Assembly: GCA_964629655.1 (NCBI GenBank)
Contig: CAZVQU010000003.1
Coordinates: 17,613 to 81,612 of the forward strand
Direction of reading: 5' to 3'
From: an uncultured Planctomycetia bacterium
GTDB lineage: Bacteria; Omnitrophota; Gorgyraeia; Duberdicusellales; 4484-171
DNA: 64,000 bases
Under the pieces are notes generated by a model. The model worked only from the letters and a program-made list of their open reading frames with translations. It ran no database searches and had not been told where the DNA came from. The translations under genes and the position numbers were made by a program. This document shows positions 3,877 to 64,000 of the stretch, piece by piece (the first letter of the stretch is position 1; the number at the start of each line of letters is the position of its first letter).

Positions 3877-3947
3877 ACTTGACAGAAGAATAAATATATT
3901 GTATACTTTGGGTAGTTAATAGTTAATATAGTTAAGTGTTAAGGAGG
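3877..3947 (+). promoter_or_regulatory. Putative sigma70 promoter (TTGACA-17-TATACT) plus triple GTTAA(T/G) repeat (tagTTAATagTTAATatagTTAAG) likely MarR operator, then RBS AAGGAGG
   Basis: TTGACA at 3877-3882, TATACT 17 nt downstream. Repeated GTTAAT half-sites 3913-3936 immediately upstream of marR-like start. Confidence 0.35.
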
Positions 3948-3953
3948 CTAAAT

Positions 3954-5898: not shown

Positions 5899-5908
5899 AG
5901 GAACAATT

Positions 5909-9040: not shown

Positions 9041-9052
9041 TATAATACATCA

Positions 9053-10192
9053 ATGATAAAGAAACCACTTCTTTTAAAGATTTATGAAGCCGCACCTATG
9101 CAACGCTGGAACGACCAGATCCGCACTGTCGAGCTGACCGAATTAGATAAACAGGCCCATAAAATGGTTATTGCCTATTGCTTGGGCAAGTGTGAAGAGG
9201 ATAACCAAACAAAAGGTTTTGATTGGGTTGAGGTAATTGAGGCCGGAATTTTTGAGTTTCTCCAGCGGATTGTAATCACTGATTTAAAGCCGGCGCTATT
9301 TCACCGGATAAAAGATAATAAAAAACAATATAAAAAGTTAAATCAGTGGGCCTATAAAGAAATAAGCCCGGTTATAAGCTCTTTGGGCGAGGGTTTTTGC
9401 GGGAGGTTTCAGAATTATTTATATGATCCTGAACGTAATGTGAATCGTAGGATCATAAGCGCCGCTCACTTCTGGGCTACTAAGTGGGAGTTTGATATTA
9501 TTGAGCGGGCTAACCCTAATGGTTATGCGATTGAGGAGATAAAAGAAGATATACGTACTAAACAGGAGAAGTATCAGGATCTCGGGAGCATGCAGAAACT
9601 GCTGCATTCTCAGAAATTAAAGGATTTTGTAGATATCTGCGGCCAGCTGAGATTCCAAATACGCTGGAGTCATCTCCATCGAGTTCCTAAAACCTCAGTC
9701 TTAGGGCATATGCTAATTGTGGCGATGCTAGCCTATTTATTCTCTTTAGAGATAAAAGCTGATAGTAAAAGGGTTATAAATAATTACTTTACCGGCCTAT
9801 TTCATGATTTACCAGAAGTTCTTACTCGTGATATAATTAATCCGGTAAAAAGAGCAGTCCAAGGATTAGAGGACTTAATTAAAGAATACGAGCGTTCTGC
9901 GATGGAGGCAAAGATATATAAGTTAATTCCTACAACCTGGCATCAAGCTATGCATATGTTTACTGAAAGTGAGTTTACCAATATTGTAGCCTCAGATGGT
10001 ACCGTAGAAAGAGACGGAGAACTTATAAAAGGCATTGACCAATTAGCAGCTTTTATTGAGGCTTATCTATCTTTGAAAAATGGCGTACAAAGTCAAGCCT
10101 TGGAGAGAGCAGTAGCCAATGTTAGAAAAGAATACCAGTCAAAGGCTCTTTGCGGTATAGATTTCGGCCAGATATATAGCGATTTTGATTGA
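9053..10192 (+). CDS. Tandem HD-domain phosphohydrolase (YfbR-like 5'-deoxynucleotidase fold; first repeat degenerate)
   Basis: Second repeat carries RWSHLHRVPKTSVLGHMLIVAM...LFHDLPEVLTRDI (H...HD metal motif). First repeat RWNDQIRTVELTELDKQAHKMVIAYCL is similar but lacks the HD dyad. Confidence 0.55.
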   Translation: MIKKPLLLKIYEAAPMQRWNDQIRTVELTELDKQAHKMVIAYCLGKCEEDNQTKGFDWVEVIEAGIFEFLQRIVITDLKPALFHRIKDNKKQYKKLNQWAYKEISPVISSLGEGFCGRFQNYLYDPERNVNRRIISAAHFWATKWEFDIIERANPNGYAIEEIKEDIRTKQEKYQDLGSMQKLLHSQKLKDFVDICGQLRFQIRWSHLHRVPKTSVLGHMLIVAMLAYLFSLEIKADSKRVINNYFTGLFHDLPEVLTRDIINPVKRAVQGLEDLIKEYERSAMEAKIYKLIPTTWHQAMHMFTESEFTNIVASDGTVERDGELIKGIDQLAAFIEAYLSLKNGVQSQALERAVANVRKEYQSKALCGIDFGQIYSDFD

Positions 10193-10295
10193 GGGGTTGA
10201 CTAAGGTCAAATTTTAAGGATAATGTCTATATATATAAGGTATAAGGTAGAGGCCTGTTCGTTGGCAGACCGGGAGAGGACAAAGGATAGTATTT

Positions 10296-10625
10296 ATGGA
10301 ACTAAAAGAAATTATCGAGAAGTGCAAGACTTTAAATATTTACGAAGAGAGATTTGTTACTGACAATTATTACGAAATCGTCTTTTACACTAAGGATAAT
10401 GACCAATGGATCAAGCTATTTACTGAGATTTTAGGTCCAGCGGCAAATCCAGCCGGGATAGCGCCGACTGAAGAGGATACTGAGTTAACTCAAAAGTATG
10501 GAGGAGTTAGGGATAACCAGACCTTATTCAAGAAAAAAGTGGGTCATCCTATCGTAGCTGTTATGTTTTGGCCTTGGCAGGATGGGGTTCGTACTACCCT
10601 CAAGGTAGCTCTTGTAGCAAAATAG
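10296..10625 (+). CDS. Hypothetical protein
   Basis: 109-aa ORF with RBS-like context. No recognisable motif. Confidence 0.3.
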   Translation: MELKEIIEKCKTLNIYEERFVTDNYYEIVFYTKDNDQWIKLFTEILGPAANPAGIAPTEEDTELTQKYGGVRDNQTLFKKKVGHPIVAVMFWPWQDGVRTTLKVALVAK

Positions 10626-10630
10626 TCATT

Positions 10631-10861
10631 ATGAAAAACTTCTTTAATAATATAAAAGGAATTTTCACCGGAGGCAAGAAATATAAGTGTCAGATCTGCG
10701 GGAGAATGATTCACGAGGCTCATTCCTTGGAGCATGCTAAGGCTGAAGAGTACTTACTTAATCTCATAAAAGAAGATCATCCTAAGTGGAAGCAGAAAGA
10801 TTTAACTTGTTCAGAGTGTATTGAATACTACCGCAAACTAATAAATCAAGCCGAAATTTAA
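10631..10861 (+). CDS. Small zinc-ribbon protein (CxxC...CxxC)
   Basis: MKNFFNN...CQICGRMIHEAH...CSECIEYYRK. Start taken at ATG 10631 to avoid overlap with upstream ORF. Confidence 0.35.
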   Translation: MKNFFNNIKGIFTGGKKYKCQICGRMIHEAHSLEHAKAEEYLLNLIKEDHPKWKQKDLTCSECIEYYRKLINQAEI

Positions 10862-10890
10862 ACCGTTAAATTTTTAATACAGGAGGAAGG

Positions 10891-11841
10891 ATGTTTAGAG
10901 AAAAAATCAAAGTATTTGACTGTACAATTCGTGACGGCGGCCTTATCAATAAACATAATTTTGATCATCGGTTTGTTCGGGAAGTCTATAAGGGTCTTTC
11001 AGCTGCCGGTGTAGATTATATGGAGATAGGTTACAAGAATTCTAAAAATTTGTTTTCCGCCTCTGAATATGGGATTTGGAAGTTCTGCGATGATGAAGAT
11101 GTTCGCAAAGTAACAAGAGGAGTAAAATCCAAGACTAAGATTTCGGTTATGGTTGATGTTGGCCGGGTAGACTTAAAAGATGTAAAGCCGGCAAGTCAAA
11201 GCCCGGTAGATATGATTCGGGTCGCCTCTTATGTCAAAGACATTGATAAAGCAATATATATGGTTAATCACTTTGCTGATAAAGGATATGAGACAACCAT
11301 TAATATTATGGCTATTTCCCGCGATCAGGGTAAAGAGCTAGAAGAGGCTTTGTATCAAATAGAGAAGGAAAGCAAAATTAATGCGCTTTATATTGTTGAT
11401 AGCTTTGGCGCTCTTTATCAGGAGCCGGTCGAGCTTCTAGTAAAGCTGTTTAAGGGTATTGTTAAGCGGGCTGAAATAGGATTCCATGGGCACAACCATC
11501 AGCAGCTTGCTTTTGGTAATACCATTGAGTCAATTATTCATGGGGCCAATTACCTTGATGCTACGGTCTATGGAATTGGCCGGGCTGCCGGGAATTGCCC
11601 TTTAGAGTTACTAGTCGGGTTTTTGAAGAACCCTAAATTTGACCTGCGGCCGATATTGGATTTGATATCCAAGGAATTTATTCCGCTAAGAGGAAAAATC
11701 GAGTGGGGTTATATTATTCCTTACGCAATCGCCGGGATGATGAATGAGCACCCTCGGGCTGCTATGGCTCTACGTAATAGTGACAAAAAAGAAAATTACC
11801 GCTCCTTTTACGAGAGTCTGATTAATACCGACTTGGATTAA
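10891..11841 (+). CDS. HMGL-like (DRE-TIM metallolyase / pyruvate carboxyltransferase family) enzyme
   Basis: N-terminus KIKVFDCTIRDGG...VDYMEIGY and later HGHNHQQLAFGNT match the HMGL-like aldolase/synthase fold. RBS AGGAGG. Confidence 0.55.
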   Translation: MFREKIKVFDCTIRDGGLINKHNFDHRFVREVYKGLSAAGVDYMEIGYKNSKNLFSASEYGIWKFCDDEDVRKVTRGVKSKTKISVMVDVGRVDLKDVKPASQSPVDMIRVASYVKDIDKAIYMVNHFADKGYETTINIMAISRDQGKELEEALYQIEKESKINALYIVDSFGALYQEPVELLVKLFKGIVKRAEIGFHGHNHQQLAFGNTIESIIHGANYLDATVYGIGRAAGNCPLELLVGFLKNPKFDLRPILDLISKEFIPLRGKIEWGYIIPYAIAGMMNEHPRAAMALRNSDKKENYRSFYESLINTDLD

Positions 11842-50520: not shown

Positions 50521-50615
50521 CAAAAAAAAAAACAACTCCTAAACCATAATTCTTTTATTTTATATCGGCGGCGGCGAAAAATTCCTAAAAGGTGTTTTTG
50601 CTCGGGGAGAGTCCG

Positions 50616-50667
50616 CATTCTGCCTACGCGATTGTCCCGTATTCATTTCGGGACATCGCTTGGCAGA
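50616..50667. other. Long imperfect hairpin (TTCTGCC..CGCGAT..GTCCCG-loop-CGGGAC..ATCGC..GGCAGAA), candidate structured RNA element or terminator
   Basis: Nested complementary segments read directly from the sequence. Confidence 0.3.
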
Positions 50668-50714
50668 ATAAAGCCGAATCTTTTTGCAAATATAAGTGGT
50701 TGCAATATCCCACC

Positions 50715-50759
50715 CACCCAAAGCCTGTCTCGGCCTACACCCCGAACCAGCCTTTTCCC
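50715..50759. repeat. Intergenic repeat family 2, copy a (cacccaaagcctgtctcggcctacaccccgaaccagccttttccc). Split copy at 55288-55307 + 55379-55409
   Basis: Part 1 cacccaaaRcctRtctcgg and part 2 tcggcctRcRcYccgaRccagccttttccc are conserved. The 55.3 kb copy carries about 70 bp inserted between the parts. Confidence 0.45.
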
Positions 50760-50858: not shown

Positions 50859-51242
50859 ATGCCTAACGCAAACAGTAAAAAGACAATATTGGTGGTAGAA
50901 GATAAACCTTTGAACATGAAACTTGCCGTAGATCTTCTTGAGCTAAATGGGTTTAACCTTCTAAAGGCTTTTGATGGAAAATCTGCCATTGAGATATTAA
51001 AAGAAAATATTCCAGATCTTGTTCTTATGGATATTGGTCTGCCTGACATGGATGGATTTGAATTGCTTAAGCTGGTGAGGCAAGACAAGCGATTCGATGA
51101 GATACCAATAGGCGCGTTTACCGCTTCAGTGATGCAGGAAGATGAGCAAAGAATTAAAGACGCTGGTTTTAATTTTTTCATTAGAAAACCAATTGATACA
51201 AAGAACTTTGTTAAAACAGTAAAAAACCTAGCAAGGGAATAA
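50859..51242 (+). CDS. Stand-alone response-regulator receiver (CheY-like)
   Basis: ILVVEDKPLN...DLVLMDIGLPDMDGFE...IRKPI. Confidence 0.8.
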   Translation: MPNANSKKTILVVEDKPLNMKLAVDLLELNGFNLLKAFDGKSAIEILKENIPDLVLMDIGLPDMDGFELLKLVRQDKRFDEIPIGAFTASVMQEDEQRIKDAGFNFFIRKPIDTKNFVKTVKNLARE

Positions 51243-51246
51243 ATAC

Positions 51247-51876
51247 ATGAATAGATCAAAATTACTGGGAATCATTATTATCTTAGTGGGTATTGTGGTA
51301 ATGACGGGGTGGATATTAGATATCGGAATCCTAAAAAGCATATTGCCTTTTTGGGTAACAATGAAATTTACAACAGCGCTTTCTTTTTTCTTAAGCGGCA
51401 CAACTCTTTATTTTATAGCTGATTTAGTGAAGAATAAAAGTGAGGTTGCCAGAGTAATTTTACCAATAACAACAATGGTTATTCTTCTGCTTATGGTCAC
51501 ACTTCTGGTTTCTACATTTTCAGGTATACGTACGGGAATTGAAGACCTGTTTGTAAGCGAATCTGAAGGAGCATTTAAAACTGTAATTCCTGGTAGACCA
51601 TCAGTAGGTACGATGGTAAATTTTACTTTTATAACCATTGCTGTGTTTTGTGTAATGCTTAACCTGAAAAAATCTTTATTTAGGCTAAAACTTATCGGTG
51701 GAACAATTTCTCTTGTGTCCGGTGTCGCAATTGTTGGCTATATCATTAATGTTCCACCTTTATATTATGCGATCGATAATTTTAGTACTGCGATGGCCTT
51801 TCATACTGCTATCCTTTTTCTTCTGTTAGGGGTTGGTTTATTCTTAGTATCAGGAGTCAAAGATAATGTTGATTAA
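51247..51876 (+). CDS. Integral membrane protein (about 6 TM), possibly a separate sensor module for the downstream kinase
   Basis: 209 aa, mostly hydrophobic. 11-nt overlap with the downstream HK start suggests translational coupling. Confidence 0.4.
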   Translation: MNRSKLLGIIIILVGIVVMTGWILDIGILKSILPFWVTMKFTTALSFFLSGTTLYFIADLVKNKSEVARVILPITTMVILLLMVTLLVSTFSGIRTGIEDLFVSESEGAFKTVIPGRPSVGTMVNFTFITIAVFCVMLNLKKSLFRLKLIGGTISLVSGVAIVGYIINVPPLYYAIDNFSTAMAFHTAILFLLLGVGLFLVSGVKDNVD

Positions 51877-53770
51877 AGTAAAACTTATTATTCTATTTGT
51901 TGTACTTGTTACGATTCCGCTGTTTTTTGTTAGCTTTATAAGCTATACAAATAGCAAAGATGCCTTAGAACAGGCAATCTTAAGCAAGCTGCATCTTGTT
52001 ACTGAATTTAGAGAGAGTGAGATACTTGTTTTTCTGGAGAATATTAAAAAACGTACAATACATTTTTCTTCCGAACCGGCAATTAAAGATTTTGTCAAAG
52101 AAGCCGCTGATGTTAACAAACATGAAATTGGAAGAAAGTTTACAAAATATTTATTCGAGCATGAAGCACTTAATGACAAAGATATAGTAGCTATAGATGT
52201 AGTAGATTTAAGTGGGCAGGTGATAATTTCAAGTAGCCCTTTAAGGATAGGCCGTGACTATAGCAAAACGAGTTCTTTTTTATACGGTAGAAACAAGGCA
52301 TATGTCAGCGACACGATAAGGAATGAAGAAGGGGTAGCAGGGTTTAGTGTATCCGTACCGATTATGTCTTATAAAAAAGATAAAGTTATCGGCGTTTGGG
52401 TGGCTCACTACGATGAAGATACTTTGAGCGGAATATTAACCGGAGAGAGAATTTTAAGATTGGGGGCGATGACTCAATGGAGAGGGGTAGGTAATACCGG
52501 AGAAAGTTATATAGTTAACCAAGATAAATTCATGATAACAGAATCATTATTTTTAGAAGATGCTATTTTGAATCAAAGAGTAGGTACCTATCCGGTAAAT
52601 AAGGGTTTGGAAGAAAACAAAGAAGTAAAAGGTGTATGGTTGGATTATCGCGGGATACCTGTAATTGGCGTTTCAATGGTTCTTCATATAGAAGATTTTA
52701 CTTGGGTTTTGCTTTCCGAACAAGATGTAAGTGAAGCGATTATCCCAGCACATGATCTCAGAAAGATATTACTTATGATAGTAGTTACCACAGCCTTAAT
52801 TATTATTTTAATAACGTTGTTAATTTCTCAATCAATTTCAGATCCGATTCGCGCTCTTCAGAAAGGTGCCAAGATAATAGGCGGAGGTAATTTAAATTAC
52901 AAGGTTGGCACTAAGGATAAGGATGAAATTGGCCAGCTTTCTAGGGATTTTGATAAAATGACAAATACGCTGCAAAAAACTACTGCCTCACGGGATTCCC
53001 TTAACAAAGAAATTTCTATACGTAAACGAGTAGAAGCGGACTTAACAAGTGCGAAAAAAGATGCTGAAGCAGCCAGCAAGGCAAAAAGTGATTTTCTTGC
53101 TAGTATGAGCCATGAATTAAGGACTCCCTTAAATGCAATTATAGGATTCTCGGAAGTATTAAGAGATGAAGCCTTTGGTCCTTTTAACGACAAACAGAAA
53201 GAATATACTGTTGATGTGTTAAATAGCGGTAAGCATCTCTTGTCGCTTATTAATGATATTCTAGATTTGTCAAAAATCGAAGCCGGTAAAACAGAGTTGT
53301 CACTAAGTGATTTTGACTTAAAAGCGGAGCTTGAAAATAGCCTATCAATGATAAAAGAAAAAGCTTTAAAACATAACATATCTATAGTTAAAAATATTAG
53401 CGATAATTTAGGAGTAGTGCGCGCTGATGAGAGAAAATTCAAGCAAATTATGTTTAATCTTCTATCTAATGCGGCAAAATTTACGCCTGATGGCGGTAAA
53501 ATCGGCATTGAAGCAAAAATGGAAGATAAAAATACAATTCTTATTACTGTGTGGGATACTGGTATTGGTATAGAAGAAAAAAATAAGGACAAGGTTTTTA
53601 AGGAGTTTGAGCAGATTGACTCAAGTCATTCACGAAAATATGCCGGTACAGGTTTGGGCATGCCATTGGCGAAGAGGTTTGTTGAGCTTCATAAAGGAAA
53701 GTTGTGGTTTGAAAGCAAGGGTAAGGATCAAGGCACTTATTTTTATTTTACGTTGCCCTTGAAAGGTTAA
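51866..53770 (+). CDS. Sensor histidine kinase (extracytoplasmic Cache-like domain, HAMP, HisKA, HATPase_c)
   Basis: TM1, about 270-aa periplasmic region, TM2. HAMP ISDPIRALQKGAKIIGGGNLNYKV...IGQLSRDFDKM. HisKA LASMSHELRTPLNAI. HATPase GTGLGMPLAKRFVELHKGKLWFES. Confidence 0.8.
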   Translation: MLIKVKLIILFVVLVTIPLFFVSFISYTNSKDALEQAILSKLHLVTEFRESEILVFLENIKKRTIHFSSEPAIKDFVKEAADVNKHEIGRKFTKYLFEHEALNDKDIVAIDVVDLSGQVIISSSPLRIGRDYSKTSSFLYGRNKAYVSDTIRNEEGVAGFSVSVPIMSYKKDKVIGVWVAHYDEDTLSGILTGERILRLGAMTQWRGVGNTGESYIVNQDKFMITESLFLEDAILNQRVGTYPVNKGLEENKEVKGVWLDYRGIPVIGVSMVLHIEDFTWVLLSEQDVSEAIIPAHDLRKILLMIVVTTALIIILITLLISQSISDPIRALQKGAKIIGGGNLNYKVGTKDKDEIGQLSRDFDKMTNTLQKTTASRDSLNKEISIRKRVEADLTSAKKDAEAASKAKSDFLASMSHELRTPLNAIIGFSEVLRDEAFGPFNDKQKEYTVDVLNSGKHLLSLINDILDLSKIEAGKTELSLSDFDLKAELENSLSMIKEKALKHNISIVKNISDNLGVVRADERKFKQIMFNLLSNAAKFTPDGGKIGIEAKMEDKNTILITVWDTGIGIEEKNKDKVFKEFEQIDSSHSRKYAGTGLGMPLAKRFVELHKGKLWFESKGKDQGTYFYFTLPLKG

Positions 53771-53774
53771 AGCG

Positions 53775-55232
53775 ATGGATAAAAAGGCAAAGATATTGGT
53801 TGTTGATGATGAGCCGCAAAATGTTAAATTGCTAGAAGCGCACCTTTTGCCAAAAGGTTATGAGATTCTGACCGCTTCAAACGGAAAAGAAGCCTTGCAA
53901 GTTGTTGTCGACAATGATATAGATTTAATTTTACTCGATATAATGATGCCGGAAATGGATGGATTTGAAGTTACTAGAAAAATAAGGGCTGAGAAAGCTA
54001 CCCAGCTTATTCCGATAGTTCTTGTTACTGCCTTGAAGGAAACTGAGGACAGGATAAAAGGTATAGACGCTGGCTGTGATGATTTTATCTCTAAGCCGTT
54101 TGATAAAAATGAAGTAATGGCGCGGGTAAATACACTTTTAAAGCTAAGTTATCTTCGTAGGCAGCTTAACGAAAAGGAAAAGTTTGAAGCAGTTATTAAC
54201 GAGATAGGTGATGGTATTATTGTATGCGATAAAGACTGGATTATAAAAGATATTAATAATTCCGCACAGAAATACTTGAACATGTCTGAGCCCGGGAGTG
54301 CGAATTTATCTGAAGTTATTTTTAAGCTTTACTCGGTATCCATAGCAAAAGAAGAAATTTCAGATTTTTCAATTCCACACATGACATTTGAGCTTATTCG
54401 TGAGGAAACGGAACAGTTCAAAGCCTTATATCTAGCCGCTAATTTGGATATTCTCAAAAATCCGGCAGGGGAAATTTCAAGCATAGTTCTGACTTTGCGT
54501 GATGTGACCGAAATGCGCAAAGAAGAGCTTATGAAGCAAGATTTTCTAAGTCTTATCTCACATAAATTGGCTACACCGATAGGAGCTATTAGCGGGAGTG
54601 CAGCTTTGTTTAAAAATGGAACCTTAGGGCCTTTGAACGAGGAGCAGGGCAAGTTTATGAATAGCATTTTGGAAAAGGCGCATTCGCTTGAAAGCTTACT
54701 TGATAAATTATTGGGATTTGTTACGATAGAGCGGAAAAAGATAGATTCGTTAAAAGAGCCAATAGAGCTCCAGAGCTATTTACCGGCCTTGCTCAATCCG
54801 ATAGTTGAGAAAAAAAATGGTAAAAAAATAAAACTGGACATTAATTGCCAAGGTGATGACATGAAAGTTTATATAAACAAAGGGCATCTTGATTTAATAA
54901 TTAAGAATCTTATTGAAAACGCTATTAAATTTAATGACAAGGATTTTAAAGAAATCATTGTTTCTGCTGAAAACTTAGCTGAGAAGATAAAGATCTCTGT
55001 TTCTGACAATGGTCCTGGTATACCTTCTGAGGAAAAAGATAAGATATTTCAAAAATTTTATCAGATTGAAAAATATTTTACCGGTAATGTCGAAGGCGTT
55101 GGTTTAGGCCTTGCCTTGGTAAAATGCCTCGTAACCGCCTATGGCGGCCAGATAGGTATAGAATCAGAAATTGGGAAAGGTTCAAAATTCACTTTTACCA
55201 TACCGAATCTTTCTGCAAATATAAGTGATTAA
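53775..55232 (+). CDS. Hybrid response-regulator receiver / PAS-like / histidine kinase
   Basis: REC ILVVDDEPQN...DLILLDIMMPEMDGFEV. HisKA LSLISHKLATPIGAI. HATPase GVGLGLALVKCLVTAYGGQIGIES. Confidence 0.8.
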   Translation: MDKKAKILVVDDEPQNVKLLEAHLLPKGYEILTASNGKEALQVVVDNDIDLILLDIMMPEMDGFEVTRKIRAEKATQLIPIVLVTALKETEDRIKGIDAGCDDFISKPFDKNEVMARVNTLLKLSYLRRQLNEKEKFEAVINEIGDGIIVCDKDWIIKDINNSAQKYLNMSEPGSANLSEVIFKLYSVSIAKEEISDFSIPHMTFELIREETEQFKALYLAANLDILKNPAGEISSIVLTLRDVTEMRKEELMKQDFLSLISHKLATPIGAISGSAALFKNGTLGPLNEEQGKFMNSILEKAHSLESLLDKLLGFVTIERKKIDSLKEPIELQSYLPALLNPIVEKKNGKKIKLDINCQGDDMKVYINKGHLDLIIKNLIENAIKFNDKDFKEIIVSAENLAEKIKISVSDNGPGIPSEEKDKIFQKFYQIEKYFTGNVEGVGLGLALVKCLVTAYGGQIGIESEIGKGSKFTFTIPNLSANISD

Positions 55233-56312: not shown

Positions 56313-57455
56313 GTGAAGAGACGTAGATTTCACCTATTCTCTGTATTAATCCTCGCAATATTTTTAATTACTCAGGCTGCATATTCTGCAGATGATTTTG
56401 TTTCCTCCCGGGTTAAAGACATATCCGACCGTAGCTACGAAGAAGCTGTGATTGGGCTTTTAGATAATGCCCAAAAATCCATAGATATTTCTATGTATTC
56501 CATAAGTTTAGGGACAAATACTAACAACCCGGTAAAACTTTTGCTTAACGATTTATTGGAAGCAAGAGAAAGGGGCGTTGAAGTTACTCTATATCTTAAT
56601 ACCCGCTTCAGAGATTCTAAGAAAGGTGGTAATTCTTTTGCTGAAAGCCTTATTTTTAAAAAATTGGAGAAGGCCGGAGTCCTTATTCATTTTATACCCT
56701 CTAATCGCAGACTTCACGATAAGCTTATAGTAGTTGATAGCCGGTATGTAGTTGAGGGCAGTGCTAATTGGTCTATCTCAGCCCTGAAGAATAATTTTGA
56801 ATCTTCTACGCTTATTGATTCTCCGGATCTAGCCGGGGTGAAATTGTCGCGTCTTAAAAGCTTTCTTATATTTTCGTTGCCGCGCGGCAAGAAACCTAAT
56901 GCTCCGGCTTATATAGAGAACTTACCTAAGAGTTTAAACTTACCCGGAGAGTTTGTTTTGAATAAAAAATATCTTTCTCGTATGGTTACTAGCTATGATA
57001 AGCGGGCGATGAGTCTTTATTTATTACTCCTAGCTCACAGCCAGTCTGTAGGCAAACAGGAGTTCCTAATAAGTTTAGAGGCCATGGCTTTAAGTTTAGG
57101 CATGCCTGATTCCTGGACTGACCCTGCCTTAAGGCGCCAGGTAATTAAAGTTTTAAGGAAGTTGCAAAAACGCTATCAACTTATTGAAGTAAGTTTTTTC
57201 CACAGCCGGGATGCTAATGTCATACTTACAGATATCTCCGGTGATACTTTTGGTATATCCTCAGATTCACTTATTCAGCCGGATAATGCCAAATTAACTA
57301 TGCGCCTGAAGTTTCTTCTTCTAATTCAGGCCTTGCTTAAAGAAGAGGGAGAGGACTTATATTCCATATCAAAAACCGCCCTTGCTAAACGCTTTAATGT
57401 TAATCTATCAACCATTAAAGCTGCATTTAATGATTTACGTAAGTATGGTGATTAA
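56313..57455 (+). CDS. Phospholipase-D-family (single HKD) nuclease-like protein with N-terminal signal peptide and C-terminal wHTH-like domain
   Basis: HKD motif LHDKLIVVDSRYVVEGSANWS. Signal-like MKRRRFHLFSVLILAIFLITQAAYSADD. C-terminal ISKTALAKRFNVNLSTIKAAFNDLRKYG resembles a wHTH. Confidence 0.7.
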   Translation: MKRRRFHLFSVLILAIFLITQAAYSADDFVSSRVKDISDRSYEEAVIGLLDNAQKSIDISMYSISLGTNTNNPVKLLLNDLLEARERGVEVTLYLNTRFRDSKKGGNSFAESLIFKKLEKAGVLIHFIPSNRRLHDKLIVVDSRYVVEGSANWSISALKNNFESSTLIDSPDLAGVKLSRLKSFLIFSLPRGKKPNAPAYIENLPKSLNLPGEFVLNKKYLSRMVTSYDKRAMSLYLLLLAHSQSVGKQEFLISLEAMALSLGMPDSWTDPALRRQVIKVLRKLQKRYQLIEVSFFHSRDANVILTDISGDTFGISSDSLIQPDNAKLTMRLKFLLLIQALLKEEGEDLYSISKTALAKRFNVNLSTIKAAFNDLRKYGD

Positions 57456-57478: not shown

Positions 57479-58036
57479 ATGGAAATAATATGTTCCGGCT
57501 GCAGGAAAGTTTTAGGCATCCAACGACCTTATGATGATAATTCCGAGGTTCCAGCCAAATGCCTTGATTGTTTCCAAAAAGAAAAGAAAGAGGCTTCAAG
57601 GCAGCCGTCATTACCGGCACCTGGAGAGCGGAAAGATATTACACTTGAGGGTGGCCTCAAAGGTTTTCTTATGGTTGCAGGCGCTGGTACAGCAAAACTT
57701 TCCTTTTGGGATTTGATAGTTTCCGGGAAGGAGATATTTTGCGCCAAGGATCGAAGAGAAAGCTTTCAGGAATATCTGGAAATGAGAGATAGCGACCATG
57801 TTGATGTAACTTTTTTATTCTCTTCGTCCATCAAGATTCCACCTACAAACTGTAGGAGCAAAAAACAATCCATTAAGAAAAATAAGTCCCAATCGATTCA
57901 CTATAACTGCACTGTGACGGTCTCTAAAGATTATGCGCTTATGATGTTTGATAAAGTGGCAGAGCGACAGGAACAGTTTGCAAATGTAGTTACTGAGGGA
58001 ATAGTTAAAGCGAGTGAAGCCGAATTTTCATGGTAG
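57479..58036 (+). CDS. Hypothetical protein with N-terminal Zn-ribbon (CSGC...CLDC)
   Basis: 185-aa ORF. No other motif recognised. Confidence 0.35.
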   Translation: MEIICSGCRKVLGIQRPYDDNSEVPAKCLDCFQKEKKEASRQPSLPAPGERKDITLEGGLKGFLMVAGAGTAKLSFWDLIVSGKEIFCAKDRRESFQEYLEMRDSDHVDVTFLFSSSIKIPPTNCRSKKQSIKKNKSQSIHYNCTVTVSKDYALMMFDKVAERQEQFANVVTEGIVKASEAEFSW

Positions 58037-58164
58037 AGTGGTTAGAAAATATTCCACCCGCCTAGCAGTCACAGTCGGACGGCTTAAGTCTTTAGGACTT
58101 CTGCTGCACCCTTTATATGCCGTTGCCCCATAGAAGAATTAGCTTGCATGAATATATTAAATAT

Positions 58165-58181
58165 GGTACATTGTGGCACAA
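58165..58181 (+). promoter_or_regulatory. Perfect 17-bp palindrome ACATTGTG-g-CACAATGT overlapping putative promoter (TTGCAT-17-TACATT) of the HTH gene. Candidate controller operator
   Basis: Read directly. Located about 30 nt upstream of ATG 58212. Confidence 0.4.
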
Positions 58182-58211
58182 TGTTGTATAACGCAAAATG
58201 GAGTATTTCCA

Positions 58212-58385
58212 ATGTTACTTAAAGGATATTTAACAGTAGTGCAGGTTGCTAAACAGCTTGGCCTGTCTGAGTACAGAATACGCGAGCTTATTCGAGAGAA
58301 GCAAATTCGTGCGGTGAAGATAGGGCAATGGCGAGTAAAGCCTGAGGATTTAAAAGAGTTTATTAAAGCAAGGACGAATAGATAA
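58212..58385 (+). CDS. Excisionase/MerR-type HTH DNA-binding protein (possible R-M controller)
   Basis: LTVVQVAKQLGLSEYRIRELIREKQIRAVKIGQWRVKPEDLKEF = HTH_17/Xis-family pattern. Start chosen at ATG 58212 (57 aa). Track GTG start 58173 lies inside the palindrome. Confidence 0.6.
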   Translation: MLLKGYLTVVQVAKQLGLSEYRIRELIREKQIRAVKIGQWRVKPEDLKEFIKARTNR

Positions 58386-58388
58386 ATT

Positions 58389-60911
58389 ATGCCAAAAGAA
58401 GCAAAAGCACGAATACGAATAAACAAATATCTTGAAGACGCAGGGTGGCGGTTTTTTGACACAGATGCCGGCTCCGCAAATATTTGCCTGGAGACGAATG
58501 TCAAAATTACTGAACAGGCTCTTAACGGTCTTGGCGAGGACTTTGAGAAAACTAAAAATGGGTTTACAGACTATATTCTTTTAGACGATAAAGGTTTCCC
58601 TTTCGTAGTTTTAGAGGCAAAGCGAGAGGATAAAGACCCTTTAGACGGGAAGGAGCAGGCTCGCAAATATGCAAAGAATCTTAACGTTCGTTTTATAATT
58701 TTGTCTAATGGCAACCTTCATTATTTCTGGGATATCGAAACAGGCAATCCGCATATTATCACTGCCTTTCCCACATGCGAATCTTTGACTTTCAAGAAAT
58801 CTTTTAAGCCTAATACAAATAATTTGGTTCGTGAATATGTTGACTCGGATTACGTTGCGATTACCCAAAAACCAGATTATAAGAGCGACCCTAACTGGAT
58901 GGATGAGAAAAAACAAAATGATTTCATTAGCGATAATAATCTCAAGTTTTTAAGGGACTATCAGATAAATGCCATTAAATCTTTGCAGGATGCTGTGAAA
59001 GAAAATAAAAGCCGATTCCTGTTTGAAATGGCAACAGGTACAGGAAAGACTCTTGTTGCGGCAGGTGTTATCAAGCTATTCTTAAGGACCGGAAACGCCA
59101 AGAGGGTGCTTTTCCTGGTTGACAGATTGGAGTTAGAGGATCAGGCCTGGAAGAATTTTGTAAAATACCTTAAGAACGATTATAAATCCGTAATTTACAA
59201 AGAAAACCGAGATGACTGGAAAAAAGCTGAAATCGTTGTCTCGACGGTCCAGTCACTCCTTTTTAATAACAAGTATAAAGATTTGTTTTCACCGACTGAT
59301 TTTGATTTGGTTATTTCGGATGAAGCGCATCGCTCAATTGGTGGCAATAGCCGGGCAGTGTTTGAGTATTTTACCGGATATAAATTAGGACTTACCGCAA
59401 CCCCGAAAGATTACCTGAAAAAGGTTGATGAAAAGAAATTGGCAGAAAGAGACCCGCGCAAATTAGAAAAGCGTCAGTTGCTCGATACTTATAAAACCTT
59501 TGGATGCGAGGCGAGCAGTCCAACGTTCAGGTACACTCTTTTGGATGGAGTAAAAGACGATTATCTTGTAAATCCTATTGTTGTAGATGCCAGAACGGAT
59601 ATAACAACCGAGTTGCTCTCAGAAATGGGCTATTCTGTGCTGATAGAAAACGAGGGAGGTAAGGAAGAAGAAAAGATATATTTCCAAAAGGATTTTGAAC
59701 GAAAGTTTTTCTCGGAAAAGACTAACGGGACATTGTGCAGGACATTTTTAGATAAAGCGTTAAAAGATCCCCTAACAGGTGAGATTGGCAAAAGTATTAT
59801 TTTTTGCGTTAGCCAAAATCACGCTTCCAAAATTACACAGATACTTAATGAGTTGGCACATAAAATTTATCCGGGTAAATATAATTCTGATTTTGCGGTG
59901 CAGGTAACATCTTCTATTGATAGCGCACAGCAGATGACAATCAACTTTTCAAACAATAATCTTAATGGTCATTCAGCTTTCAAGCCTGGTTATAATTCCA
60001 GCAAGACCAGGGTGTGTGTTACCGTAGGAATGATGACGACGGGTTATGACTGTGAGGATATTCTGAATTTATGCTTAATGCGGCCTATCTTTTCCCCGCA
60101 AAATTTTATTCAGATGAAAGGCAGGGGAACCAGAAAATATGATTTTGTTTATAGAGAAAAAGATGACTTGGGAAAGGTAGAAAAATATGTTGTTAAAAAG
60201 GAGCGGTTTAAACTTTTTGATTTTTTCGCCAATTGCGAATATTTTGAAGAAAAATTTAATTATGATGAAGTGATAGAATTGCCTCCGGAAACCGGAGGAG
60301 GCCCGGGGCCGCATCCGCCACCGCCGCCGTCAGACGAATATGAAAGTACTCGTCTTGATCCTTTAAAAGAATTGGCAGAGACATCTATCGGCCTTGAGGG
60401 CATGAAAATTGACAGAAAGTTTTTTGAAAAGTTTGAAGCGGTTATTAAAGGCAATGAATATGTTAAAGACAAAATTTATGAAGGTAAGTACGAAGAAGCT
60501 GAGAGCTACATCAGGAAAGAGGTTTTTGATAAGCCGGAAGAATACTTTAACCTTGATAAACTCCGTAAATCCGTTAAACTTGACCGCCGCTTAAGTCTAA
60601 GAGAGGTACTGGAAAGAATATTCGGACGAATTAAGAAATTTAAAACAAAGGATGACCTGCTCGAGGAAGAGATAGAGAAGTTCATTTCTCTTTACCATCC
60701 CGAAAATAAGTTTATTCATATTATACGCCAATTCATGAAAGCGTATATCTTAGATACCGAGTTGCGGGAAATTTTTAACTCAAAAGAATACGGCAGGCTT
60801 GAGACTAACCCGGGTTTTACAATGAAGGATTTAAAAGAATTAGACGGCTGGAAAGACCCGGTTGTTGAGTATATAAAAGATTATGTGCCATTAAATACTT
60901 TTGTGGCTTAA
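58389..60911 (+). CDS. hsdR: Type I restriction enzyme R subunit (short form: PD-(D/E)xK nuclease + SF2 helicase, Pro/Gly-rich linker)
   Basis: HsdR_N-like KARIRINKYLEDAGW. Nuclease DYILLDDKGFPFVVLEAKRED. Helicase motif I MATGTGKT, II DEAHR. Linker PPETGGGPGPHPPPPPSD. 840 aa. Confidence 0.8.
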   Translation: MPKEAKARIRINKYLEDAGWRFFDTDAGSANICLETNVKITEQALNGLGEDFEKTKNGFTDYILLDDKGFPFVVLEAKREDKDPLDGKEQARKYAKNLNVRFIILSNGNLHYFWDIETGNPHIITAFPTCESLTFKKSFKPNTNNLVREYVDSDYVAITQKPDYKSDPNWMDEKKQNDFISDNNLKFLRDYQINAIKSLQDAVKENKSRFLFEMATGTGKTLVAAGVIKLFLRTGNAKRVLFLVDRLELEDQAWKNFVKYLKNDYKSVIYKENRDDWKKAEIVVSTVQSLLFNNKYKDLFSPTDFDLVISDEAHRSIGGNSRAVFEYFTGYKLGLTATPKDYLKKVDEKKLAERDPRKLEKRQLLDTYKTFGCEASSPTFRYTLLDGVKDDYLVNPIVVDARTDITTELLSEMGYSVLIENEGGKEEEKIYFQKDFERKFFSEKTNGTLCRTFLDKALKDPLTGEIGKSIIFCVSQNHASKITQILNELAHKIYPGKYNSDFAVQVTSSIDSAQQMTINFSNNNLNGHSAFKPGYNSSKTRVCVTVGMMTTGYDCEDILNLCLMRPIFSPQNFIQMKGRGTRKYDFVYREKDDLGKVEKYVVKKERFKLFDFFANCEYFEEKFNYDEVIELPPETGGGPGPHPPPPPSDEYESTRLDPLKELAETSIGLEGMKIDRKFFEKFEAVIKGNEYVKDKIYEGKYEEAESYIRKEVFDKPEEYFNLDKLRKSVKLDRRLSLREVLERIFGRIKKFKTKDDLLEEEIEKFISLYHPENKFIHIIRQFMKAYILDTELREIFNSKEYGRLETNPGFTMKDLKELDGWKDPVVEYIKDYVPLNTFVA

Positions 60912-60925
60912 AGGAAAATTGAGAT

Positions 60926-63370
60926 ATGTTGACAAATGGAACAAAAAAACTGATTGATGCGGCAAGGGATATTCTTGTGGGTAAATTGCCTGATCCAAAA
61001 TCACAGGTTGAGCAAATCACGATCGCTTTAATCTATAAGTTTATGGATGACATGGATAAGCAATCGGAGGAGCTTGGCGGCAAGGCGAAATTCTTTACTG
61101 GTGAATACACAAAATATGCCTGGAGTAAAATATTTGATCCTCGTGTGAGTGGGCATGAGCTTGTTGGCTTGTATGGCGAAGCTATCCAGAGGATGAACCA
61201 TAATCCAAATATCCCACAATTATTCAGAAATATTTTTAAAAATGCCTATTTGCCATATCGCGATCCTGAAACCTTAAAAAGTTTCCTTAAGGCTATCGGA
61301 GAGTTTGAGTATGATCACAGCGAGAAATTAGGCGATGCCTTTGAATATTTACTTTCTATAATGGGCTCGCAAGGCGATGCAGGTCAGTTTAGAACACCCC
61401 GGCATATTATTGATTTTATAGTGAAGGTGGTTGACCCAGGGAAGAACGAGACTATTTTGGACCCTGCCTGTGGCACAGCTGGATTCTTGATTTCTTCGTA
61501 CAAACATATTTTAGAGAAAAATAAAAAAGACGGTCGGGTACATTTAACTCCGGCTCAAAAGAAAAGGCTCGTTGAAAACTTTTCTGGCTATGATATTTCG
61601 CCGGATATGGTGAGATTGTCATTGGCCAATATGTATCTGCACGGGTTTAAGAATCCTAAAATCTATGAGTATGATACCTTAACCTCAGAGGAAAGATGGC
61701 AGGAAGTGTTTGATGTGATATTGGCAAATCCGCCGTTCATGAGTCCAAAAGGCGGGATAAGACCGCATAAACGGTTTAGCGTACAGGCAAAGCGTTCAGA
61801 GGTGCTTTTTGTTGATTATATGGTGGAGCATTTAAACCCAAACGGCCGCGCGGGGATTATCGTACCTGAAGGAATTATTTTTCAATTAGGCACGGCTTAC
61901 AAAAAACTGCGTAAGATGTTGGTTGACCATTCGCTTTATGCTGTTGTGTCATTACCTGCGGGCGTGTTTAATCCTTATTCCGGAGTTAAAACATCAACAT
62001 TGATGTTGGATAAAAATCTGGCAAAAAAGACAGATAAGATTTTATTCGTAAAAATCAATAACGATGGTTTCGGTCTGGGTGCTCAAAGAAGAGAAGTTAA
62101 AGGAAGCGACTTGCCAGCGGCTTTAGAAATTATTAGGCGATACAAACAAAGTATCATTGGAGATAAAGAATTTAAATTCAGTGCTGATGAGGCAAAACTT
62201 GCCTCTTTGGTCGAGAAAGAAAAAATTGCAGGAAGCGGAGATTATAACCTAAGCGGAGATAGATACCGTGAAGCAGCTATTTATAGTGGAAAATGGGATT
62301 TTGTAGAGCTTGATAAAGTTGTAGATATTCTTGATAGTCGGCGTAAACCAGTCAAGAAAGGTGATAGGATAAAAGGGGCCTATCCTTATTATGGCGCTAC
62401 GGGTATTTTGGATTATGTGGGTGACTATATATTCGATGAGCGATTAGTGCTTGTTGGTGAAGATGGCGCTAAATGGGGGAAGGGAGAAAAGACAGCATTT
62501 ATTGTAGAAGGAAAATGTTGGGTCAATAATCATGCCCATGTTTTGCGAACCAAGAAGAATAAGATATTTGATACTTTTTTGATGCAGATATTAAATGAGC
62601 TGGATTTATCTCGATACATTACAGGAGTAACTGTTCCTAAGTTGAATCAGGAGAAACTTAGAGGGATTAAAATCCCTCTCCCGCCTCTTGAAGTACAGGA
62701 ACAGATTGTTGCTGAATTAGATAATTATCAAAAAATCATTGACGGCGCACGCCAGGTAGTAGAAAATTACAAACCTACCTTCAAAATTGATACTAATTGG
62801 GAGATTGTGAAACTGGGCGAGGTTTGTGATCTTGAATATGGGTATTCTGAAACAGCAAAAGATGCGGGGGAGTATCGTTATATACGGATAACAGATATTT
62901 CCAATAATGGTTTATTGCGGAATGATGATCTTAAATATATTAGTTTAAATAAAAAATCGAGAAATTATATTTTAAATAAAGGGGAGGTATTAGTTGCTCG
63001 AACAGGTGCGACTTATGGGAAGACACTTTATTTTTATGATGATATGAAAGCTATTTTTGCAGGGTATCTAATAAGGCTTAATTTTGATCAAAATATTGTC
63101 AATAATAAATTTTACTGGGTTTTTGCACAGAGTTTAGATTACGATAAGCAAAAAAACAGTCTAGTCCAAGGAGGAGGGCAACCTCAATTTAATGCTAATG
63201 CTATCAAGCAGATAAAGATTTCTTTGCCCCCTCTTAATATTCAACAGCAGATTGTTATTCAGGTAGAAAAAGAACAAAAAGCAATTGAGGCTACAAAAGG
63301 TTTAATCACCCTCTTTGAACAAAAAATTAAAGATCGAATTGCGAAAGTTTGGGGTGAAAAGGCAATATGA
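60926..63370 (+). CDS. Fused Type I methyltransferase-specificity subunit (HsdM-HsdS fusion, two TRDs)
   Basis: Motif I LDPACGTAGFL, motif IV ILANPPF. Two TRD/conserved-repeat units each ending in LPPL(E/N)(V/I)Q(E/Q)QIV. Confidence 0.8.
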   Translation: MLTNGTKKLIDAARDILVGKLPDPKSQVEQITIALIYKFMDDMDKQSEELGGKAKFFTGEYTKYAWSKIFDPRVSGHELVGLYGEAIQRMNHNPNIPQLFRNIFKNAYLPYRDPETLKSFLKAIGEFEYDHSEKLGDAFEYLLSIMGSQGDAGQFRTPRHIIDFIVKVVDPGKNETILDPACGTAGFLISSYKHILEKNKKDGRVHLTPAQKKRLVENFSGYDISPDMVRLSLANMYLHGFKNPKIYEYDTLTSEERWQEVFDVILANPPFMSPKGGIRPHKRFSVQAKRSEVLFVDYMVEHLNPNGRAGIIVPEGIIFQLGTAYKKLRKMLVDHSLYAVVSLPAGVFNPYSGVKTSTLMLDKNLAKKTDKILFVKINNDGFGLGAQRREVKGSDLPAALEIIRRYKQSIIGDKEFKFSADEAKLASLVEKEKIAGSGDYNLSGDRYREAAIYSGKWDFVELDKVVDILDSRRKPVKKGDRIKGAYPYYGATGILDYVGDYIFDERLVLVGEDGAKWGKGEKTAFIVEGKCWVNNHAHVLRTKKNKIFDTFLMQILNELDLSRYITGVTVPKLNQEKLRGIKIPLPPLEVQEQIVAELDNYQKIIDGARQVVENYKPTFKIDTNWEIVKLGEVCDLEYGYSETAKDAGEYRYIRITDISNNGLLRNDDLKYISLNKKSRNYILNKGEVLVARTGATYGKTLYFYDDMKAIFAGYLIRLNFDQNIVNNKFYWVFAQSLDYDKQKNSLVQGGGQPQFNANAIKQIKISLPPLNIQQQIVIQVEKEQKAIEATKGLITLFEQKIKDRIAKVWGEKAI

Positions 63371-64000
63371 TCAAAACGCAAACAGCAACCTATGTCGGTC
63401 ATCGTCAGAGGATAAAGGATAAGTACAAGAAGGCAGGCGTAAGTGGCTGGTTAGATTATGAGGTGGTGGAGTTAGTTCTTTCCTATGCTATCGCTCGGAA
63501 AGACACAAAACCGATTGCCAAAGAATTGATGAACCGGTTTAAAACAATCAGTGGGGTTTTAGATGCTGACAGTAAAGAACTAAAGTCTGTCTCCGGGGTT
63601 TCAGAACACACAGCCTTGTTTTTAAAGTTGCTGAAAGATATCGCTGTTCTTTATTTAGAAAATGGTTTGCATGGTAAAGATTTGCTGTCATCATCCGAAC
63701 AGGTTTTTGATTACCTGAAGGTTTCTCTGAAGGGGTGTGTGGATGAGGAATTTAAGACCATCTTTTTAAATGGCAGAAATCAACTGGTAGCAGTTGAGGC
63801 ACTTCAGATAGGCACAGTTAATAGATCTGCAATTTATCCGAGGAAGATTGTCGAGCGGGCATTGTATCATCATGCGGTTGGTGTTATTATCGCACATAAT
63901 CATCCAGCGGGCACGTTGACACCCTCAAAGGAAGATTGCGCGGTAACAAAATCTATTAAGGATGCGCTCAAGACTGTTGAAATTAGCCTGTTAGATCATA
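63367..64000 (+). CDS. radC: RadC-like JAB-domain protein (partial, C-terminus beyond window)
   Basis: N-terminal helix-hairpin-helix region and JAMM motif HNHPAG...PSKED. ATGA overlap with upstream stop. Confidence 0.8.
   Translation, partial: MIKTQTATYVGHRQRIKDKYKKAGVSGWLDYEVVELVLSYAIARKDTKPIAKELMNRFKTISGVLDADSKELKSVSGVSEHTALFLKLLKDIAVLYLENGLHGKDLLSSSEQVFDYLKVSLKGCVDEEFKTIFLNGRNQLVAVEALQIGTVNRSAIYPRKIVERALYHHAVGVIIAHNHPAGTLTPSKEDCAVTKSIKDALKTVEISLLDH

Follow-up and report, generated by a model that had tools for sequence, protein, structure and literature searches.

A Type I-like restriction-modification locus with a fused methylase-specificity protein and a portable, putative regulator cassette in an Omnitrophota genome

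A two-gene restriction-modification unit

The stretch of DNA analysed here, hereafter the window, comprises 64,000 nucleotides (positions 17,613 to 81,612, forward strand) of contig CAZVQU010000003.1 in assembly GCA_964629655.1, from an uncultured Planctomycetia bacterium with the GTDB lineage Omnitrophota, Gorgyraeia, Duberdicusellales, 4484-171. At its 3' end lie four co-directional plus-strand genes arranged head to tail. They encode a 57-aa helix-turn-helix (HTH) protein of the HTH_17 family, an 840-aa restriction subunit (R), an 814-aa protein that joins a DNA methyltransferase (MTase) to a specificity subunit (M~S), and a RadC-like protein (Table 1). Only 3 nt separate the HTH gene from R and 14 nt separate R from M~S, and the M~S and RadC genes share an ATGA overlap by which RadC is translationally coupled to M~S. 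An earlier sequence-only reading had described a Type I-like restriction-modification (R-M) locus in which the HTH gene ends 3 nt before hsdR and RadC follows with an ATGA overlap. Both junctions are read directly in the sequence, and the domain calls and the packing of R and M~S bear out the assignment.

M~S starts with an HsdM_N-like helical domain (aa 1-132), followed by a gamma-class N6-methyladenine (m6A) MTase domain with the motifs DPACGTAGF and NPPF (aa 133-450; Pfam N6_Mtase, E = 1.3e-54). Its specificity part consists of a first target recognition domain (TRD1, aa 456-590), a conserved helix (588-614), a second target recognition domain (TRD2, 626-775) and another conserved helix (770-809). 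Pfam places Methylase_S matches at aa 456-606 and 621-782, and the PADLOC Type IIG model also matches this part of the protein. TRD1 begins approximately 15 residues past the conserved 'DYNLSxxRY' end of the MTase, and motif I (DPACGTAGF) and motif IV (ANPPF) are invariant in 34 M~S sequences. An AlphaFold2 (AF2) model with a predicted local distance difference test (pLDDT) score of 82.3 contains two beta-rich TRDs and the two long helices. Its top Foldseek match was 7EEW_A (E = 3e-28), with Type I HsdM and HsdS chains next. The module is therefore a complete two-TRD specificity module, as had been read from the sequence.

The fusion of M and S in a single protein is genuine. A protein search returned more than 120 full-length homologues (~790-880 aa, 57-78% identity over 100% of the query), all with N6_Mtase and Methylase_S domains and from sources that include Methylophilus, Rheinheimera, Omnitrophota and an archaeon. 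These homologues, together with the conserved junction motif, rule out a frameshift artefact. Full-length relatives occupy no fewer than 597 places in species-representative genomes, across many bacterial phyla and also in archaea, and a fusion kept in hundreds of genomes is not an artefact.

Conservation is distributed unevenly along the protein. The median identity to 73 homologues is 72% in the N-domain and 69% in the MTase, 60% in the central conserved helix (CR1) and 46% in the C-terminal helix (CR2), and falls to 21% in TRD1 and 24% in TRD2. Hypervariable TRDs beside a conserved MTase resemble the pattern of working Type I systems. The locus of Candidatus Zapsychrus exili, a metagenome-assembled genome (locus L004 among those compared here), illustrates this: its R is 93% and its M part 88-95% identical to those of the window, yet both TRDs are only 25-26% identical. 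With R and M conserved and the TRDs diverged, the pair represents a textbook TRD swap.

For a neighbourhood analysis of M~S, 80 loci were kept from the places in which relatives are encoded. Of the 80 loci, 74 encode a full-length homologue of R (52-93% identity), in 73 cases upstream on the same strand; the six loci without R are contigs that start within ~500 nt of M~S. The spacing is below 100 nt in 42 of 67 complete pairs. Another 24 pairs contain an insertion of 0.3-1.9 kb, with genes for PIN, IS200-like, KilA-N-like, Schlafen-like and similar proteins. The inserted genes were never an hsdM, which rules out a hidden separate hsdM between R and M~S in these ~67 loci. Together the co-occurrence, the spacing and the content of the insertions indicate that R and M~S form a conserved two-gene unit without a free methylase subunit.

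R combines a PD-(D/E)xK nuclease (Pfam HSDR_N / HSDR_N_2; D61, E76-A-K78) with a superfamily 2 (SF2) translocase motor (ResIII/DEAD; GTGKT, DEAH, TATP and QxxGRGTR). Across 66 R homologues, 200 positions are at least 97% conserved. These include all catalytic motifs and cover the nuclease D...ExK and QxxxY as well as helicase motifs I, Ia, II (DEAH), III, V and VI. All 66 homologues are 825-861 aa long, so the length of R, which had been singled out as anomalously short, is the norm for the family. The Pro-rich linker pointed out at the same time is present but is no oddity, since a spacer of variable composition occupies this position family-wide, poly-Pro in many homologues and poly-Gly in others. 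After the linker comes a conserved C-terminal domain ('GMKIDRMFFEKFE...'); no Pfam family matched this domain (aa 672-840), even at E values up to 10. The closest curated family is the EcoAI/FtnUII Type IB HsdR (NCBIfam restrict_EcoAI, NF046051), for which R scored 242 bits; the cutoff is 550 bits, which rules out R as an EcoAI equivalog. The closest solved chain is the Vibrio vulnificus HsdR fragment 3H1T (E = 2.5e-32).

Among the features of a classical Type I system, the locus has an HsdR with a nuclease and an SF2 motor, gamma-class MTase motifs and a two-TRD module, but not a separate HsdM and HsdS. When hsdM and hsdS of EcoKI were fused, the name 'Type IMS' was proposed for M-S fusions that have one or two TRDs and a separate HsdR (Roberts et al. 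2012; PMC3510504). The window genes have this composition, and judged by its gene content the window system is a natural two-TRD Type IMS R-M system. With the engineered Type IMS enzymes (EcoKI and S. aureus CC398-1; Roberts 2012, Bower 2018) it shares the in-frame joining of M to a two-TRD S and the separate HsdR. The engineered fusions are laboratory constructs that derive from Type IA and S. aureus systems, retain the C-terminal tail of HsdM and are functional in restriction and modification in vivo. The window fusion, in contrast, is natural and ancient, and its R belongs to a distinct lineage of ~840 aa.

Comparison with other systems narrows the assignment further. The 'minimal intact MTase' of V. 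vulnificus YJ016, 7EEW, is also a natural M~S fusion and the best sequence-aligned one (aa 127-594). It differs in having one TRD and, according to the passages of PMC12429846 in which it is cited, forms an (M-halfS)2 assembly that resembles M2S1; the window protein has two TRDs per MTase and is only ~18-25% identical to it. Type IB systems of the EcoAI family have an R of similar length (~800 aa), but EcoAI M and S are separate subunits. The Type IIB/IIG enzymes AloI, CjeI and TstI share one MTase joined to a two-TRD module and the same 1:2 stoichiometry puzzle. They differ in that the nuclease is on the same chain, there is no ATP motor, and cleavage occurs at fixed positions on both sides of the site. 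A single-chain Type IIB/IIG (AloI-like) enzyme is ruled out by the HsdM_N-like N-terminus of M~S and by the location of the nuclease on R with an SF2 motor. Membership of BREX PglX or DISARM is excluded by scores far under the cutoffs, and MADS by 16 bits for MAD1 (cutoff 80), 103 for MAD2 (720) and 42 for MAD5 (400). A Type ISP enzyme has a single TRD, and its nuclease is Mrr-like (PMC3874165). The resemblance to a split Type ISP enzyme that the sequence-only reading had proposed did not hold up: there are two polypeptides, two diversifying TRDs and an HSDR_N-type nuclease, and R is nearest to EcoAI (Type IB) and to V. vulnificus HsdR. The R-M architecture is solid, ordinary in kind and under-described; the regulator cassette is the more novel part of the locus.

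The genes beyond M~S can be followed in L001, a longer assembly of the same locus. There RadC, a 43-aa open reading frame (ORF), SIR2_2 and a HerA-like DUF87 ATPase each overlap the preceding gene (L001:12442-17202), and a 72-aa ORF and a PD-(D/E)XK protein lie beyond. From this gap-free run of overlapping genes after M~S, the SIR2-HerA defence pair appears to be co-transcribed with the R-M genes. A generic terminator scan predicted no terminator around the HTH gene or the HTH-R junction. The window RadC is 84% identical to its counterpart in Ca. Zapsychrus exili; together with the 93% identity of R and the named sources of the HTH homologues, this points to an Omnitrophota bacterium as the probable source of the window.

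RadC-like JAB genes recur in R-M operons. Besides the window copy they occur at L004:5314-5946, where the gene again follows M~S, and at L085:5137-5853, where the same HTH cassette heads a classical Type I operon and the RadC-like gene separates HTH from hsdM. Two perfect palindromes besides the one listed in Table 1, AACATCAAcaTTGATGTT (61990-62007) and AGAGGGATtaaaATCCCTCT (62660-62679), lie within the coding region of M~S.

Relatives of R and M~S are also found on plasmids. In the Escherichia coli IncFIA/FIC plasmid NZ_CP116482.1 (L169), four consecutive genes at 3215-10954 encode a CopG-like ribbon-helix-helix (RHH) protein, an R that is 60% identical to the window R, a 677-aa M fused to an apparent single TRD, and an AAA ATPase of the TrlF family. 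The R and M pair lies at 3406-8034. The observation covers 53 plasmid records of E. coli, from conjugative plasmids. The RHH gene is preceded by TACATT direct repeats 11 nt apart. The Prokaryotic Genome Annotation Pipeline (PGAP) names of these plasmid relatives are only 'DEAD/DEAH box helicase family protein' and 'N-6 DNA methylase'.

Table 1. Positions of the features discussed in the text, in window coordinates
Feature	Position	Strand	Details
Element, 5' part	50559..50720	+	model positions 1-156; nhmmer, A3 profile, E = 7.9e-20
Element, 3' part	58001..58156	+	model positions 89-249; nhmmer, E = 6.7e-24
Putative promoter	58144..58172	+	-35 TTGCAT (58144-58149), 17-nt spacer, -10 TACATT (58167-58172); placed by positional homology with related loci
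Three tandem 10-bp direct repeats, probable HTH operator	58161..58190	+	ATATGGTACA / TTGTGGCACA / ATGTTGTATA; spans the -10 box and probable transcription start
Perfect 17-bp palindrome	58168..58184	.	ACATTGTGgCACAATGT; private to this copy; read directly and by script
HTH_17 gene	58212..58385	+	ATG 58212, stop 58383-58385; Xis/BldC/MerR-like winged helix, putative autorepressor and operon regulator; Pfam, NCBIfam
R subunit	58389..60911	+	840 aa; HSDR_N and ResIII/DEAD domains
Pro/Gly-rich linker in R	60282..60329	+	aa 632-647, PPETGGGPGPHPPPPP; aligned segment is a Gly/Pro spacer in all family members
Fused M~S protein	60926..63370	+	814 aa; N6_Mtase and two Methylase_S stretches
RadC-like JAB protein	63367..64000	+	cut by the window end; Pfam RadC, E = 4.9e-34; 228 aa in L001

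The HTH protein, its cassette and its direct repeats

Pfam HTH_17 (PF12728; E = 1.9e-13, 50.9 bits against a cutoff of 27) and TIGR01764 'excise' (E = 1.3e-11, 44.6 bits against a cutoff of 28.8) both match the 57-aa protein. Its AF2 model (pLDDT 78.7) has the order helix-helix-strand-strand-helix, and Foldseek matched it to RacA, BldC, the mycobacteriophage Pukovnik Xis and RdfS with template modelling (TM) scores of 0.67-0.82, or 0.6-0.8 for the set that includes Tn916 Xis, the probability being ~1.0 for RacA, BldC and Xis. A sequence search of the PDB returned only a designed repeat protein and a non-significant Xis match. The protein belongs to the HTH_17 / excisionase-BldC class of winged helices. 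Its earlier description as a Xis/MerR-type rather than an Xre-type protein in the controller position is thereby confirmed by Pfam and NCBIfam and by the predicted fold.

The HTH protein has 669 homologues, and those in the best 120 clusters of the 669 are 84-100% identical over their full length. The named sources are Omnitrophota, Thermodesulfovibrionia, Nitrospinae and Smithellaceae; collections of cultured phages and plasmids contained no homologue at E <= 1e-8. The genes that follow are diverse. L085 and L086 have the order HTH-RadC-HsdM-HsdS-HsdR, and L088 has HTH, an N6_N4 MTase and a Csa1-like nuclease. At L090 a Gabija pair and a PD-(D/E)XK gene precede the cassette, and a Type III Mod-Res pair follows it. 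A metagenome scan added 80 more HTH loci, in the large majority of which a plus-strand gene starts within ~60 nt of the HTH stop codon. Pfam annotation of 77 distinct first downstream genes gave HsdM_N (9 genes), N6_N4_Mtase (5), HATPase_c_3 (4), RadC, GmrSD_N, SNF2/ResIII and SMODS (3 each), KAP NTPase and BrxA (2 each), and AIPR, D12 MTase and C5 MTase (1 each). PADLOC agrees, identifying Type I, II and III MTases and a CBASS cyclase among the genes after HTH. By these annotations the cassette heads Type I, II, III and IV R-M, BREX, CBASS and other defence operons. The idea that the HTH protein is a dedicated controller of this R-M system must thus be given up, as the same cassette heads many unrelated defence operons.

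The slot directly before R is occupied by different small DNA-binding genes in different members of the R-M~S family. In L004, the closest relative of R, the gene encodes an Xre-type HTH protein, another is found in L079, and in the E. coli IncF plasmids the CopG-like RHH gene lies 3 nt before R. Replacement of HTH in the same slot by non-homologous small DNA-binding genes favours a regulatory role for it. A small regulator directly before the endonuclease gene, the arrangement of C-protein genes, is also what is found in the window, with its 3-nt gap and no predicted terminator. The HTH_17/Xis fold and the lack of a conserved palindrome rule out an Xre-type C protein with palindromic C-boxes. 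A homologue of RptR is likewise ruled out, as no sequence or fold match to 9R2Z occurred among the PDB matches.

Several known regulators nonetheless offer instructive comparisons. Type II C proteins and BrxR/CapW are also encoded by small DNA-binding genes that head defence operons and are presumed to be autoregulated, and like BrxR the HTH protein is tied to many different systems. C proteins are Xre-type dimers that act on palindromic C-boxes and BrxR/CapW have a ligand-sensing WYL domain; the HTH protein has neither. BldC, phage Xis, RdfS and D29 Gp36, which are MerR-like and lack a dimerisation domain, share its predicted fold and the kind of site predicted for it, tandem direct repeats with a period of ~10 bp, at an identity of 12-24%. 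Some members of this class act as transcription regulators, as we propose for the HTH protein. To our knowledge none of these four has been described as a regulator of a defence operon. RptR, from the Type I R-M / DarTG island of enteropathogenic E. coli, is a tiny regulator that heads a Type I R-M island, has three direct repeats in its own promoter and, like the HTH protein, is highly conserved together with its site (PMC12255303). It differs in being a 79-aa four-helix dimer without close structural relatives that recognises TAGCTA cores, whereas the window protein is a 57-aa winged helix with ATGTGG units, and the two are not homologous.

A conserved array of direct repeats precedes the HTH gene. 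The consensus array ATGTGGTATT / ATGTGGCATA / ATGTTGTATA is present in 73 of 78 unique upstream regions of HTH relatives, with a median match score of 25 of 30 against a 99th percentile of 19 for shuffled sequences. It starts at -51 from the ATG in most loci and between -41 and -77 overall. Where repeats 1 and 2 meet there is a TGnTATAAT-like extended -10 box (GGTATTAT, GGTATAAT or GGTATGAT); TTGTAT precedes it by 17 nt, and GGAG stands 8 nt ahead of the ATG. More than 70 related loci read TTGTAT, 17 nt, and TATTAT, TATAAT or TATGAT at the position assigned to the promoter in the window.

Three direct repeats are the type of site expected for a monomeric winged helix of the Xis/BldC type. BldC has no dimerisation domain; its molecules line up head to tail as multimers on direct repeats (PMC5859096). 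Gp36 of D29, another member of the class, is a transcriptional repressor that acts through direct repeats (PMC12266134). By analogy, approximately three HTH monomers would bind the repeats cooperatively, head to tail, over the -10 box and start site. Binding of this kind would imply negative autoregulation of the whole operon: the HTH protein would repress its own promoter and so set the expression of the HTH-R-M~S-RadC operon that runs into SIR2-HerA. RptR provides a functional precedent for such autoregulation, from a different fold.

A distant HTH_17 gene (35% identical) that precedes R in L014 has two direct repeats, CTTGCCAT, with a 10-nt period in front of it (L014:5205-5230), which again point to direct-repeat sites for this class of protein.

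The upstream element, recombination and the palindrome

Nucleotide similarity among the HTH loci reaches ~600 nt upstream of the ATG (for example L090:5398-6003 and L155:5407-6003). The 250-nt core of this element (alignment A3) has consensus hairpins with some compensatory changes and tips of variable length. With a profile built on A3, 39 loci were found to have the element immediately before the HTH cassette and in the same orientation, as against none of the 80 R-M~S loci of other organisms (L003-L082). In the window the element is split, with its halves ~7.3 kb apart and model positions 89-156 duplicated (Table 1), and BLAST similarity of the 5' part runs upstream to about position 50197. 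Split or partly duplicated copies with inserted genes are also found in L092, L094, L097 and L108. Four Rfam searches with the element gave no meaningful match. Neither the window nor 15 loci contained a tRNA or tmRNA according to ARAGORN, which rules out either as an integration target there. The element could be a gene for an RNA, a platform for recombination or a family of repeats.

Several further genes and repeats adjoin the element. Between its halves (50859-55232) are genes for a response regulator, a 209-aa ORF, a dCache/HAMP histidine kinase and a hybrid response-regulator/kinase, and L083 and L084 also have response-regulator and kinase genes adjoining the HTH cassette. A gene for a phospholipase D (PLD)-family, DrmC-like protein lies inside the element just upstream of the cassette in the window (56313-57455), L092 (2170-3315) and L108 (2841-4058); the protein has a signal-peptide-like segment at its N-terminus and a weak match to a winged HTH (HTH_36) at its C-terminus. 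It is followed in the window by a 185-aa ORF (57479-58036) with a Cys-rich N-terminus and no Pfam or PADLOC match, the last ~20 codons of which overlap the start of the 3' part of the element. On the minus strand of L090 (11709-11790) and L112 (5950-6217), the first 85 to 270 nt of the element recur as an inverted copy directly after the last cargo gene.

The inverted copies in L090 and L112 mean that the element, the HTH gene and the defence operon are bracketed there by long inverted repeats, and this bracketing could mark an invertible or mobile unit. A broader proposal, which we hold as tentative and rather unlikely, is that the HTH gene, the three-repeat promoter and the structured element (~250 to 600 nt) form the head of an exchangeable defence cassette, a new RNA- or recombination-based platform of Omnitrophota and neighbouring uncultured lineages. 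If so, whole defence operons would be swapped on this platform, among them Type I, II, III and IV R-M, BREX and CBASS, and in the window Type IMS with SIR2-HerA. The split and duplicated copies, the inverted terminal copies and the recurrent gene with PLD-nuclease and winged-HTH segments would then be its footprints.

A related alternative is that the HTH protein is a true excisionase (a recombination directionality factor) or marks the end of a mobile defence cassette, with the repeats and the element as its recombination site. Its score above the TIGR01764 cutoff and a fold like those of Pukovnik Xis, RdfS and Tn916 Xis fit such a role, and lambda-type Xis proteins bind tandem direct repeats. 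The split and duplicated elements with inserted genes, the inverted copies after the cargo, and the many contigs that end just upstream of the cassette, as at repeats, also agree with it. Against this, no integrase or recombinase was present among the 25 commonest Pfam families of the first downstream genes or in the annotated flanks, and the junctions of the duplications vary among loci, a misfit with one crossover site. Moreover, a TGnTATAAT-like -10 box that keeps a constant spacing to a GGAG ribosome-binding site falls exactly on the repeats, and the HTH gene forms one translationally packed series with the downstream defence genes. We consider the excisionase alternative unlikely.

Less likely still is a model built on the sequence-only reading, in which a C-protein-like dimeric controller acts on a palindromic operator and times R against M in this R-M system. 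The perfect 17-bp palindrome does exist, 27 nt before the ATG and over the putative -10 box and start, and a regulator directly before R is the gene order of C proteins. What did not stand is its role as a conserved operator. It is not conserved in L083, L085, L088 or other HTH relatives, and more than 70 close relatives with proteins 84-95% identical lack it and share the three direct repeats instead; the weak dyad of the relatives (ATTATGtggCATAAT) is centred elsewhere. Relative to the consensus array the window copy has four substitutions, which turn the sequence into a perfect palindrome, leave a weaker -10 box (TACATT) and without exception raise the dyad symmetry. This may be meaningful, though it concerns one lineage. 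Taken alone, the palindrome is not statistically special: a search of the window for perfect palindromes (arms of 8 nt, loop of 0-4 nt) gives 24 overlapping hits, or ~15 distinct sites, compared with 6.2 ± 2.4 hits in mononucleotide shuffles. The predicted fold of the protein is furthermore the monomeric Xis/BldC type without a dimerisation element, and the same cassette stands before systems other than R-M, including BREX, CBASS and KAP NTPases.

Proposed working of the system and its significance

The explanation we favour, and regard as probable, is that the locus encodes an intact Type IMS R-M system expressed from a portable cassette of repeat operator and HTH gene with self-repression. 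The R-M system is intact and probably active. Enzymatic activity, stoichiometry, DNA binding by the HTH protein and the sign of its regulation are what we infer from the comparisons above. M~S would read and m6A-methylate a bipartite DNA target, as expected of two TRDs held apart by two long conserved helices. R presumably docks on M~S through its C-terminal domain, and would reel in DNA from unmethylated sites and then cut at a distance.

The composition of the complex requires separate consideration. With no separate hsdM, two MTase domains would have to come from (M~S)2 with one idle S or from a clipped M fragment. The core would then be (M~S)2, or M~S with an M fragment, carrying two R subunits. 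The engineered fusions bear on both arrangements. The EcoKI fusion needed extra HsdM in vitro, and its authors weighed proteolysis, translational stalling and an (MS)2 complex with idle S (PMC3510504). The two-TRD MSfus of S. aureus required no additional M for activity; it was purified together with a clipped M fragment, its elution was compatible with the size of a dimer, and it methylated both strands of its bipartite site (PMC6158711). For AloI- and CjeI-type enzymes the same 1:2 stoichiometry has been called 'a mystery' (PMC3874165).

A monomeric M~S with a single MTase and one-strand methylation, that is, a two-protein version of Type ISP or Type III, would suit the single MTase domain per polypeptide, the lack of a separate hsdM in ~67 loci and the one-TRD members of the same family on E. 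coli plasmids (677 aa). We judge it very improbable, because both TRDs are equally hypervariable between conserved helices, as if both read DNA, the one-TRD relative 7EEW dimerises to an M2S1-like unit in the account cited above, R is nearest to EcoAI-type HsdR and not to Type ISP, and the engineered two-TRD fusion methylates both strands.

Several observations weigh against the favoured explanation of a Type IMS system under a self-repressing cassette. An HTH_17 gene precedes R in only 3 of ~67 R-M~S loci (the window, L013 and L014), so the R-M~S system does not need the HTH protein. The -35 and -10 hexamers of the window (TTGCAT, TACATT) are weak and were missed by a generic sigma-70 scan, which found no plus-strand promoter upstream of the HTH gene, and part of the repeat conservation may be mere promoter conservation. 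The HTH protein fits the 'excisionase' model and the upstream element has duplications and insertions, which leaves some probability to a role in recombination. Finally, each M~S chain has one MTase for two TRDs, which poses a stoichiometry problem, since a bipartite site calls for two MTase domains.

As a natural form of Type I restriction, the R and M~S pair is very widespread, and it extends to conjugative IncF plasmids of E. coli. The architecture is common in genomes yet barely studied: a literature search, which was not exhaustive, found no paper on the natural two-TRD R + M~S family or on the HTH cassette. Censuses of defence systems may under-count the family, since standard annotation gives only 'DEAD/DEAH box helicase' and 'N-6 DNA methylase'. 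The puzzle of one methylase to two TRDs, which is shared with AloI-type enzymes, would be directly testable in a two-protein system that has an E. coli relative. The upstream element is possibly a new non-coding RNA, or else a site of recombination, with a link to defence islands. The HTH cassette, whose operator is a clear and testable prediction, would be the third structurally distinct family of regulators shared among anti-phage systems, after WYL (BrxR/CapW) and RptR.

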